Source: an uncultured Methanosarcinales archaeon
GTDB taxonomy: Archaea > Nanobdellota > Nanobdellia > Woesearchaeales > DSVV01
Assembly (NCBI GenBank): GCA_964556185.1
Contig: CAZKVI010000003.1
Span: 2,089 to 66,088, forward strand
Length of the DNA: 64,000 nucleotides
Reading direction: 5' to 3'
The position numbers and the translations under genes are program-made. Below the pieces are notes generated by a model. The model was not told where the DNA came from. It saw nothing but the letters and a program-made list of their open reading frames with translations, and ran no database searches. Shown piece after piece: positions 21,066-59,083 of the stretch (the stretch's first letter is position 1; each line of letters opens with the position of its first letter).

Positions 21066-21228
21066 TTCAATTATTTAAAATTTTACTTATTATCACCTAA
21101 AAGTTTATAAATAACCCCGAAAAAACAGACTATAGCCTGTGACTAATGAGAATCGAAAGGTTTGAATGAGGCCATAAGTTCTATTAGTCATTTACTATTA
21201 ATTAAAGGCATATTGGAGGTAAATAAAA

Positions 21229-21545
21229 TGGCAGACAATGATAAAGTATACGAAGCTATTGAAGTAGCAAAAGCTACTGGAAAAATTAGAAAAGGTACAA
21301 ATGAAGTTACAAAAGCAATTGAAAAAGGCAATGCAAAATTAGTTGCAGTTGCATCTGATGTTAATCCACCAGAAATTACAATGCATCTTCCTTTATTATC
21401 AAAAGAAAAAGGTGTTCCATGTTTTACAGTTGGAAATAGAGAAGAACTTGGAGCTGCTGCTGGTTTAGGAGTTTCTACAACTGCTGTTGCAATTGTTCAA
21501 GAAGGAGAAGCAAAAAACCTTATTGGAAGATTATCTAAAGAATAA
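21229..21545 (+). CDS. rpl7ae: 50S ribosomal protein L7Ae
   Basis: [29 protein letters not shown]...VPCFTV. GGAGG ribosome-binding site. Confidence 0.9.
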
Positions 21546-29485: not shown

Positions 29486-30367
29486 TTATCCTTGATAAAA
29501 ACCAATTAACTGTCTTTGTCTCTTAACATGTCTTAATTTTCTTAAGGCTTTTACTTCGATTTGTCTTATTCTTTCTCTTGTTAAATCAAATACTTGACCA
29601 ATCTCTTCAAGAGAATAATGACGAGGATGATCAATTCCATATCTCATTTTCATAACTTTTTCTTCTCTGGGTGTTAATTCAGCAAGTACACTTCTAACAG
29701 CCTTTGCTAAATCAGAATCCCCTACATTTTCATCAGGTCTTCGAACACTAGCTCCTTCTATAAAATCACCTATGGTTGCATCTGATTCATCACCAACTTT
29801 TTGCTCTAATGATAATGGTTCTCTTGCAAGCCTATAAATATCTTCAATTTTTTCAACTGGTTCACCTAACCAATCTGCAATTTCTTCAGAAGTTGGTTCT
29901 CTACCAAGATCAGTAACAAGTTTTCGAGCCGTTCTTCTAACTTTAGTAACCATTTCTAATTTATAAATTGGAATTCTTATTGTTCTTACTGTAGCTTCTA
30001 TTCCTCTAATAACACTTTGTCTAATCCACCAAGAAGCATATGTAGAAAATTTATATCCTCTTCTATATTCAAATTTTTCAACAGCTCTTATTAAACCTAA
30101 ATTACCTTCTTGAATTAAATCACCAAGTGGCAAGCCTCTATATTGGTATTGTCTTGCAATACTAACAACTAGTCTTAAATTGCCTTTTATTAAATCTTCT
30201 TTAGCTGTAGCTGCTTCATAAGGAGTGCCTTCTTCCATTGTTGTAGCTAATCTAACTTCATCATCTCTAGATAATAATGCTACAGCCCCCATTTGATTCA
30301 TATACTTCCTTAGAACTCTAGGATCATCTCTATATCTTGGCCCACCTTGATAATGACTAACACCCAT
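29486..30367 (-). CDS. bacterial-type RNA polymerase sigma-70 family factor (regions 1.2, 2, 3, 4)
   Basis: Region 1.2 [28 protein letters not shown]. Region 2 [58 protein letters not shown]. Region 4 [15 protein letters not shown]...[29 protein letters not shown]. Confidence 0.8.
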
Positions 30368-48763: not shown

Positions 48764-48772
48764 AAAAAAAGG

Positions 48773-48897
48773 TGGCAGTGGCGGGATCTGAACCCGCGGC
48801 TTCTAGATCGCCCAGATATAAAGTTTAATCATCGGCATGAGCCTCATCACTCAAATCTTATGAGTCTAGCACTCTAACCAGGCTGAGTTACACTGCC
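48773..48897 (-). tRNA. tRNA-Met/Ile2(CAU), elongator type, with 50-nt intron
   Basis: Acceptor GGCAGTG/CACTGCC, D-stem ACTC/GAGT, anticodon stem CTAGA/TCTAG, loop CU-CAU-AA, T-arm GCGGG-TTCAGAT-CCCGC. Intron contains GUGAUGA. Confidence 0.7.
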
Positions 48898-57658: not shown

Positions 57659-58192
57659 ATGGCCACTGGTAAGAATGTCGACAGAAGTTTATTACAAGTT
57701 GTACGTTATAGGGGTATTTTTGATATAGAAGCAGTCTATAAAGCTGTATATGATTGGTTGAGATCAAGAGGTATGGAAGTCCAAGAAACAAAATTCAAGA
57801 CATATGATAGGGCATATGGAAGAGAACATCAAATTAAATGGAGTGCTTGGAATAATGAAACTGACTTTGTAAAAAATTGGATATTTATCACATGGAGATT
57901 TATTGATGTTGTAGAATTAGAAGTAGTTAAAGATGGAAAAAAGAAAAAGTTAAGTAAATGTCAAGCAGATATTAGAATTCAACACGCAATGGAGTTTGAT
58001 TATAGTGAACGTTTTACAAAAACAGTGTACCAAATCCGCGCATTGGAATTTATTACAGGTTGGTTATTTAGAAAAAAGATAGATACTTTATGGGAAGATA
58101 AGTTAAGGTTTAAATGTTATGAATTGCAAAATGTTGTAAAAGAAACATTAGAAGCTCAAACAAAAGGTAATGAGCATTATGATGTATGGTAA
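57659..58192 (+). CDS. hypothetical protein, tandem paralogue A
   Basis: Shares VYDWLRSRG / VVKDGKKKKLSK motifs with 58215..58715. Confidence 0.4.
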   Translation: MATGKNVDRSLLQVVRYRGIFDIEAVYKAVYDWLRSRGMEVQETKFKTYDRAYGREHQIKWSAWNNETDFVKNWIFITWRFIDVVELEVVKDGKKKKLSKCQADIRIQHAMEFDYSERFTKTVYQIRALEFITGWLFRKKIDTLWEDKLRFKCYELQNVVKETLEAQTKGNEHYDVW

Positions 58193-58214: not shown

Positions 58215-58715
58215 ATGGTCGAGAGAAGAATTGTTGTAGATACAATGAGGATGCATTACCAAGGTCTTCTTAATGTAGTTGAATTTATGGAATTTGTAGA
58301 TCGTTGGCTTCGTGAAAAAGGTTATTATAAAAAAATTGGCAGAACAGATGAAAAAGTTTTCAAAGAAAACAGACAAGTAGAAATTGAATGGGAACCTTGG
58401 AAAAAAGTTGATGAAAATGCAAAAATAGTTATTCAAATGAAATTCTTATTCACAAATGTAAAAGATGTTGTTGTAGAAAAAGACGGAATGAAGAAAAAAC
58501 TTCAACAAGCCAAGATCTCAGTTACAATGATGGGACTTATGGAATCAGACTGGGAACACAAATGGGAAAAAAGACCTTTTTACTTCTTATTCTTCTCAGT
58601 TATTGATCAGTTTGTCTGGAAAATTCATTCTGATAAGTACTTTGGTTTAGTAGCAGAAGACTGCACAGAACTAAGAAACGAAATGAAAGCTTTCTTGAAT
58701 TTGTATAGGTTCTGA
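58215..58715 (+). CDS. hypothetical protein, tandem paralogue B
   Basis: FVDRWLREKGYY / VVEKDGMKKKLQQ align to paralogue A. Confidence 0.4.
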   Translation: MVERRIVVDTMRMHYQGLLNVVEFMEFVDRWLREKGYYKKIGRTDEKVFKENRQVEIEWEPWKKVDENAKIVIQMKFLFTNVKDVVVEKDGMKKKLQQAKISVTMMGLMESDWEHKWEKRPFYFLFFSVIDQFVWKIHSDKYFGLVAEDCTELRNEMKAFLNLYRF

Positions 58716-58772
58716 GTCACAATACAAACATTTTTAAATATTCTAAATTTCATTTGAAAAAGACCAGATATT

Positions 58773-58938
58773 TGTGGGGGTAGCCCGTAAGAAGATTCTT
58801 TGGGTTCCCTAGAGCAAAGTCTGGTCAAATGCGCAGGACTTAAGATACACTGAAGACAGCCTTCACGGCAAAGTCTTTGTTTTGAATTAGACATCCTGTC
58901 ACTTAGTGTGTTCGGGGGTTCGAATCCCCTCCCCCACA
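58773..58938 (+). tRNA. tRNA-Leu(UAA)-like gene with two introns (about 29 nt near the D-arm and about 48 nt in the anticodon loop)
   Basis: Acceptor GTGGGGG/CCCCCAC. AGTCTGGTCAAATGCGCAGGACTTAAGA matches the archaeal Leu D-loop and anticodon arm; TCCTG is found 48 nt on; long variable arm; T-arm GGGGG-TTCGAAT-CCCCT; discriminator A. 166 nt = about 87 mature + 78 intron. Confidence 0.5.
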
Positions 58939-59036
58939 TTTTATTCTTTATTTTCTATTTTATGTGCGTACTGCTTTGCAAAGCAAATGCAGTACTCGCT
59001 GACTTTTTCCCAAGTTTTTACGAACGTAAAAAGCTG

Positions 59037-59058
59037 GTGGGGATCATCCTCCCCCACA
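59037..59058 (+). repeat. degenerate duplicate of the tRNA-Leu 3' end (ggtggggATCATcctcccccaca), separated from the tRNA by two strong hairpins (58968..58995, 59015..59032)
   Basis: Compare the tRNA 3' end gggggTTCGAATcccctcccccaca. Hairpins GTACTGCTTTGC-AAA-GCAAATGCAGTAC and TTTTTACG-AA-CGTAAAAA. Confidence 0.55.
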
Positions 59059-59083
59059 TTTTCTTTTTGATTTTGATTAAGAA

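Follow-up and report, generated by a model that had tools for sequence, protein, structure and literature searches.

The question raised by this locus is whether a short segment of an archaeal contig, bounded by the two strands of a tRNA acceptor stem and interrupted by two insertions, is a working tRNA gene. The DNA analysed is a stretch of 64,000 nucleotides (hereafter the window), and positions 58774 to 58938 of its plus strand very probably represent a functional tRNA-Leu(UAA) gene of a DPANN archaeon carrying two BHB introns, with transcription and splicing predicted from the sequence. The host is a DPANN archaeon, Woesearchaeota/Nanoarchaeota-like, with a G+C content of about 31%. The window encodes the archaeal ribosomal proteins L1, P0, P1, S24e, S28e, L7Ae, and S10, together with aEF-2, aEF-1alpha, Rpb7, TFE-alpha, an isoleucyl-type tRNA synthetase, Dus, and a pseudouridine synthase.

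The gene spans 165 nt and is composed of three exons of 8, 32, and 46 nt separated by introns of 31 and 48 nt, all on the plus strand. Exon 1 (58774–58781; GTGGGGGT) corresponds to the 5′ strand of the acceptor stem (positions 1–7) followed by U8, as established by splice-aware mapping onto 86-nt intronless templates, by ARAGORN on the spliced product, and by verified coordinates. Intron 1 (58782–58812) is a 31-nt non-canonical BHB intron at site 8/9, assigned from BHB geometry, family consensus, and covariation. Exon 2 (58813–58844) runs from A9 to G37, and thus contains the D-arm, the 5′ strand of the anticodon stem, and the anticodon UAA (58841–58843); it was delimited by core matches and mapping. 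Intron 2 (58845–58892) is a 48-nt canonical 37/38 BHB intron placed by geometry and homolog mapping, and exon 3 (58893–58938), from A38 to A73, carries the 3′ strand of the anticodon stem, the variable arm, the T-arm, and the 3′ strand of the acceptor stem. The acceptor stem pairs GTGGGGG (58774–58780) with CCCCCAC (58931–58937) over its whole length, the discriminator A is at 58938, the T-arm is canonical (GGGGG-TTCGAAT-CCCCT), and CCA is not encoded at the 3′ end. An earlier, sequence-only reading had proposed a 166-nt gene starting at 58773. It had found the right locus; the gene starts one base inside, at 58774, and is 165 nt long. The acceptor stem followed by A and the canonical T-arm that it described are both present, and the archaeal tRNA-Leu core that it saw in the interior is borne out by a species-representative genome scan, in which the 23-nt core of exon 2, GGTCAAATGCGCAGGACTTAAGA, is matched exactly at the tRNA-Leu(UAA) genes of at least 119 species genomes, the majority from DPANN archaea. 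Its second, non-canonical intron between the acceptor and D-stems also stands, with a length of 31 nt at site 8/9 in place of the roughly 29 nt suggested.

Removal of both inserts in silico yields an 86-nt class II tRNA that ARAGORN calls Leu(taa), in line with the UAA anticodon and long variable arm expected from the earlier reading. The cloverleaf of this product is complete, with a 7-bp acceptor stem, a D-arm harboring G18G19, the T-arm GGTTCGAATCC with its 5-bp stem, and the discriminator A, and every stem is paired. Once intron 2 is removed, the anticodon arm reads CAGGA-CUUAAGA-UCCUG, that is, a 5-bp stem and a 7-nt loop with U33, the UAA triplet, and a purine at position 37. The variable region is 15 nt long with a 3-bp stem, as in class II tRNAs. 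The spliced length of 86 nt is shared with 31 intronless homologs, and identity to intronless homologs of this length is 79–81/86, the differences being paired changes within stems.

Intron 2 lies at the site where the sequence-only reading had placed it: the partner strand TCCTG is found 48 nt past the anticodon loop, and the geometry is that of a canonical BHB. The anticodon stem (5 bp plus a G-U pair) serves as outer helix, the bulges are AG|A and AC|A, and the central helix is slightly relaxed, with three of four pairs formed (C-G, U-A, UxU, A-U). Intron 2 thus resembles the canonical 37/38 intron of Archaea and eukaryotes in its site a single nucleotide past the anticodon on the 3′ side, its outer anticodon stem, and its 3-nt bulges, and differs from it by the UxU mismatch. 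This mismatch is ordinary for these organisms, given what is seen in homologs and in the tRNA-Lys of the same window, whose intron likewise has a 3/4 central helix. In homolog 37/38 introns (n = 72), the central helix has four pairs in 47 cases, three in 16, and two in 9, so that 25 of the 72 fall below four pairs. The intron itself is present in 68 of the 113 homologs mapped among the matches listed. Neither intron of the gene has an Rfam match to a group I or group II ribozyme core, either at the gathering threshold or with E values up to 10. A split or permuted tRNA, a group I intron, and a transposon insertion were considered and ruled out by the contiguous exon order and the intron sizes of 31 and 48 nt, as well as by the BHB motifs and the lack of Rfam matches. 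As a separate observation, 16 of 84 distinct 37/38 introns show, close to their 5′ end, a GACAC motif and then a hairpin, against about 2 expected from shuffles (carriers include L083, L006, L123, and L131–L133), and intron 2 of the window has GACAG at 58855–58859. The motif suggests that its carriers either form a subfamily of related introns or have a structural or protein-binding element in common.

Intron 1 (AGCCCGTAAGAAGATTCTTTGGGTTCCCTAG) lies between U8 and A9. Because the junction sequence is repeated, cuts at 8/9, 9/10, 10/11, and 11/12 all lead to the same spliced product. A BHB was searched for at each of these cuts by scanning for a helix-bulge-helix-bulge-helix geometry, with 3-nt bulges 4 bp apart and a cut past the second bulge nucleotide, and was found at 8/9 only; the cuts at 9/10, 10/11, and 11/12, which form no BHB in the window sequence, were set aside. 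The predicted motif has an outer helix of 2 bp (G1-C11 and U2-G10), a complete central helix (G3-U, G4-C, G5-C, G6-C), and bulges GU|A on the 5′ side and AG|A on the 3′ side. The central helix is formed by CCCT near the 3′ end of the intron (58807–58810) and acceptor positions 3–6, and the interior of the intron folds as a hairpin. In the strict register, the inner helix is imperfect (G-U, CxU, C-G, C-G, GxG), and 5 bp are obtained only with U33 bulged. A variant in which the 3′ cut is one base earlier, giving a 30-nt intron with a tidier inner helix, was rejected: it leaves three nucleotides between the acceptor and D-stems and a spliced length of 87 nt, at odds with every homolog. The sequence-only reading had named in advance the search for a BHB-compatible fold at the 5′ insertion as a test of its proposal; the 3-4-3 BHB found at the U8 cut leaves that proposal in place. 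A 4/4 central helix is also obtained in 5.8% of composition-preserving shuffles of intron 1, and within the window sequence alone the BHB is only modestly non-random.

Comparison with homologs is more informative on this point. The exact matches to the exon-2 core that are listed are mostly labeled Woesearchaeota, Nanoarchaeota/Nanobdellota, Micrarchaeota, or Pacearchaeota, and 113 tRNA-Leu(UAA) genes among them could be fully mapped (splice-aware, with 86-nt intronless templates). Among these listed matches, 42 of the 113 genes have no intron, 50 have the 37/38 intron as their sole intron, about 10 carry an 8/9-type intron (two of these at 9/10), and 9 carry an intron at 59/60; introns at 49–55 are found in a few, and some homologs have three introns. 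Examples with three introns are L083, L094, L126, L131, L142, and L145. BHB introns in the T-loop at 59/60 with clean 4/4 central helices were noted at L004, L009, L023, L029, L039, L048, L059, L083, L094, L126, and L131, and BHB introns in the T-stem (about 49–51) at L008, L061, L094, L108, L142, and L145. It was also noted that many MAGs with a DPANN-type tRNA-Leu core (loci L008–L107; TPA_asm/binchicken) are titled 'uncultured Methanosarcinales archaeon'. They share the same introns and, for some of them, also the flanking paralogs described below, and their Methanosarcinales labels look doubtful.

A scan of metagenomes with a pattern that only carriers of the 5′ intron can match added 26 loci. 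In total, about 32 loci (29 different sequences) have the 5′ intron at the same site, and its commonest length is 31 nt (19/32), as in the window. The same BHB is formed in every carrier, and the 3′ end of the intron tracks the acceptor sequence: CCTC is found with GCGAGGG, CTCT with GCGGAGG, CCYT with GCGGGGG, and CCCG with GCCGGGG. In most of these homologs, the right product is obtained from the 8/9 cut alone. When the 29 distinct sequences were aligned, anchored at the cut site, 92.8% of cells were paired, a value slightly favorable to the structure since the best-pairing cut was chosen among cuts giving an equal product (usually one or two options). The central helix was paired at 100%, and compensatory changes were seen in 10 of 11 pairs. 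None of 500 shuffles reached the observed values, and slid registers paired at only 33–56%. The predicted pairing of the acceptor 5′ strand with the 3′ end of intron 1 is thus kept across species. The 31-nt introns share the consensus ta...t.AAG..aa.gcTT..t..TCCTtAG, to which intron 1 of the window conforms, with AAG at 8–10, CTT at 17–19, and TCC..AG at its end; it is therefore a homologous member of a recurring intron family. Three metagenome contigs from independent metagenomes encode an identical upstream protein and have a tRNA region that is 100% identical. They represent the same population and therefore bring no comparative signal.

The surroundings of the gene resemble those of a transcribed tRNA. 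A TATA-like box, TTTTTAAATA (58731–58740, plus strand), lies 34–43 nt upstream of position 1 and is a putative promoter element, and a TTTTTAAA(T/C)A motif is found at a similar upstream distance in homologs L006, L055, L061, L083, L059, L094, and L029. An ACCAG motif (58763–58767, plus strand) about 10 nt 5′ of the mature end is possibly an initiator or leader element; (g/a)aCCAG(a/g) is found with this spacing upstream of most homologs. Directly 3′ of the discriminator, a TTTT run (58939–58942, plus strand) followed by a T-rich stretch probably acts as an archaeal-type terminator, and T-runs are also found 3′ of most homologs. On the demand side, UUA accounts for 56% of the Leu codons in 27 long ORFs of the window. 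Two tandem paralogous ORFs (57659–58192 and 58215–58715, plus strand), encoding proteins of 177 and 166 aa without a Pfam match, are located directly upstream of the tRNA gene. In at least 17 further DPANN loci, tRNA-Leu(UAA) genes with 0–3 introns likewise have homologs of these paralogs as neighbors. From this conservation, these tRNA-Leu(UAA) genes are orthologous and differ by intron gain or loss. Taken together, the TATA-like box, the T-run, the conserved synteny, and the UUA demand argue that the gene is functional.

Standard tools miss the gene at several levels. ARAGORN with default settings finds nothing at the locus, and the tRNA-Ala is its sole find in the window. Allowing introns brings up Lys-CUU, Ser-GGA, and Met-CAU, with introns of 45, 30, and 50 nt, respectively, the tRNA-Leu again going undetected. 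At the gathering threshold, Rfam reports four tRNAs in the window, the tRNA-Leu(UAA) locus not being among them, and a permissive scan (E up to 10) yields nothing there beyond noise and the T-arm, which is taken for a tmRNA fragment. The introns appear to matter for detection in the homologs as well: RF00005 matches the three nearest intronless homologs over the full model with 58–61 bits, gives a partial match of 30.6 bits on L063, a homolog with the 5′ intron only, and has no match in the four two-intron homologs tested (4/4). The GGTTCRAATCC T-arm motif is found in the window at tRNA genes and at one site with one mismatch, and nowhere else; by this motif scan, no further hidden tRNA was found in the window. 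Four of the five tRNAs of the window (Lys-CUU, Ser-GGA, Met-CAU, and Leu-UAA) thus contain introns, the exception being Ala-GGC, which agrees with the earlier remark that nearly every tRNA of the window is intron-containing.

Could the locus be something other than a functional two-intron tRNA-Leu(UAA) gene? Lowering the ARAGORN threshold produces a tRNA-Pro(tgg) with an intron (32,78) at 58774–58938, and a 104-aa ORF is present on the minus strand at 58625–58939, so that a different tRNA or an unrelated structure, such as a tRNA-Pro(UGG) with a 78-nt intron or an antisense ORF, might be envisaged. This is almost certainly wrong. The Pro anticodon of this below-default call, which was rejected, is drawn from the variable hairpin of intron 1, whose sequence is not conserved among homologs, at least 119 species share the Leu core unchanged, and gene callers of public contigs place no protein gene between the flanking ORFs. 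Another explanation for the blindness of default ARAGORN and Rfam to this locus is that it is a decaying pseudogene, namely a former tRNA-Leu(UAA) with two insertions that are not removed, its role being served by another copy elsewhere in a genome of which 64 kb are visible. The imperfect central helix of intron 2 and the imperfect inner helix of intron 1 would fit such decay. This reading is nevertheless very unlikely, as the three exons are intact and all stems pair once spliced, the promoter-like and terminator signals are conserved around a gene reading the dominant Leu codon, and the two-intron architecture is found in many species with compensatory changes that keep the splice motif, indicating selection on splicing. 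Weakly, the genome of the nearest relative also points away from it, with the two-intron locus as its only one among the matches listed.

A subtler alternative keeps the same mature tRNA and changes the way in which intron 1 is recognized: a relaxed endonuclease would cut the 5′ insert, anywhere from 8/9 to 11/12, within a cloverleaf in which the acceptor stem has formed and the intron hairpin stacks beyond U8/A9. Some archaeal enzymes are known to accept relaxed substrates of the hBH and HBh' types (PMC3239211), and the four cut positions do give one product in the window sequence. Moreover, the minimum-energy fold keeps the acceptor stem with the hairpin right past U8, at −57.2 kcal/mol, versus −48.0 kcal/mol for the conformer with the intron-1 BHB, which is thus about 9 kcal/mol less stable. 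What this alternative fails to explain is the covariation between acceptor positions 3–6 and the end of the intron, which includes swaps from G-C to A-U to C-G. It also meets the difficulty that just the 8/9 cut gives the right product in most homologs, and that in the cloverleaf fold the 3′ splice site would lie in an unstructured stretch without flanking helices. It is accordingly rated as highly improbable, and recognition of intron 1 through its BHB is preferred.

For a gene spliced at two BHBs, the following course can be proposed. Transcription would start from the TATA-box promoter about 40 nt upstream and terminate at the T-run. The first BHB would form in the nascent RNA, where acceptor nucleotides 1–6 would find their partners in G10-C11 of exon 2 and in the 3′ end of intron 1. 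Its use of the acceptor 5′ strand makes this BHB incompatible with the acceptor stem. All of its parts are contained in the first 42 nt of the transcript, for which reason it would most likely form and be cleaved during transcription, at a time when the 3′ acceptor strand, located more than 115 nt downstream, is yet to be made. The archaeal splicing endonuclease would cleave between U8 and the intron and between the intron and A9, and an RtcB-type ligase would presumably seal the exons. Independently, the anticodon stem and a 4-bp helix between anticodon and intron would present the 37/38 sites of the 48-nt intron. With both introns excised, processing by RNase P, trimming of the 3′ end, and addition of CCA would produce the 86-nt tRNA reading UUA. 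Within the 64-kb window, neither EndA nor RtcB was found among 60 ORFs scanned with Pfam and three more annotated through L001.

Archaeal multi-intron tRNAs and non-canonical BHB introns were reportedly described by Marck and Grosjean in 2003 and by Sugahara and colleagues in 2007 and 2008. That archaeal tRNAs can harbor several BHB introns, and BHB introns at non-canonical sites, is firmly documented in the available passages of the literature (PMC4090602, PMC4033280, PMC3239211, PMC3218864). The closest known systems are the multi-intron tRNAs of Thermoproteales/Pyrobaculum, Nanoarchaeota, and ARMAN-2 (Fujishima et al. 2011, PMC3239211), which likewise combine short introns at a non-canonical site and at 37/38. 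The likeness extends to the 3-4-3 BHB, the restoration of the cloverleaf by excision, and the failure of standard finders; compared with the crenarchaeal cases, the window gene differs by its DPANN host, its 8/9 site, and a BHB built from the acceptor 5′ strand. In the passages available from PMC4090602, the non-canonical positions given are 3/4, 20/21, 22/23, 25/26, 29/30, 30/31, 45/46, 53/54, 56/57, 59/60, and 'etc.'; position 8/9 is not named in this list, which the final 'etc.' leaves open-ended. Among them, the intron found at 3/4 in the acceptor stem of Thermoproteales tRNAs (credited in the same passages to Sugahara et al. 2008) appears to be similar in that it is near the 5′ end and its splice motif involves acceptor nucleotides, in competition with the mature fold. 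The 8/9 intron lies just after the stem rather than within it, and belongs to another lineage. For DPANN lineages, excerpts of Kaneta et al. (2018; PMC5829648) report EndA in these lineages, and increased tRNA disruption, with multiple introns among the cases, in those that have an L3-loop alpha4-type EndA; they also take predicted tRNA sets that fall short of completeness as a sign of disrupted tRNA genes yet to be identified. As far as these excerpts go, that study was based on few genomes, including a Woesearchaeota and a Pacearchaeota genome, and on tRNAscan-SE 2.0, and a conserved 8/9 intron family of tRNA-Leu(UAA) is not mentioned in them. The tRNA-Leu(UAA) of the window is an instance of the disrupted genes that they predict.

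The window gene therefore belongs to a known kind, the archaeal multi-intron tRNA, and leaves current knowledge of the archaeal tRNA splicing mechanism unchanged; the conserved 8/9 intron family is a modest addition. A bolder proposal, which is tentative and on balance doubtful, is that the intron of about 31 nt at 8/9 represents an uncatalogued family widely conserved in DPANN archaea, that its 3′ end mimics the acceptor 3′ strand, and that its length and AAG...CUU hairpin have an extra role. If so, splicing of the 8/9 intron must come before formation of the acceptor stem, and the hairpin could serve as a protein-binding or processing-order checkpoint or as an intron-mobility signal. Under the same proposal, an essential UUA decoder could go unannotated in many DPANN genome bins, given that the Rfam tRNA model missed all the two-intron homologs tested. 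In practical terms, the decoder of the genome's most-used Leu codon is invisible to default tools, and such genes lead to false missing-tRNA calls and to wrong assumptions on completeness or codon reassignment for DPANN bins. The orthologous set, with 0–3 introns at 8/9, 37/38, about 49–55, and 59/60, is a natural experiment on intron gain and loss, and also informs the tolerance of DPANN splicing endonucleases to varied substrates.

Finally, several other features of the window were noted in passing. The last 15 nt of the tRNA-Leu gene with its T-run (CCTCCCCCACATTTT, 58928–58942) are repeated exactly at 59048–59062, about 105 nt downstream, where 0.07 matches are expected by chance. The repeat sits in a 22-nt 'minihelix', GTGGGGATCATCCTCCCCCACA (59037–59058), which contains both acceptor-stem strands, and the intervening 145-nt intergenic stretch folds unusually well (z = −4.45). 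Three origins can be envisaged: what is left of the att site of an integrated element, a tRNA copy in decay, or a terminator hairpin of the convergent gene. An ORF at 29486–30367 (minus strand) contains all four bacterial sigma-70 regions (1.2, 2, 3, and 4; E = 1e-8 to 1e-21) and adjoins the intron-containing tRNA-Lys in a window that is otherwise clearly archaeal; either horizontal acquisition by a DPANN archaeon or a chimeric assembly could account for it. The 50-nt intron of the tRNA-Met(CAU) (48771–48897, minus strand) has a GUGAUGA resembling a C box, as well as a second motif rich in UGAU (CGAUGAUUA), and no clear D box (CUGA) was found in it. These motifs recall the box C/D guide RNAs located inside some archaeal tRNA introns, and the same window encodes L7Ae (21162–21545).
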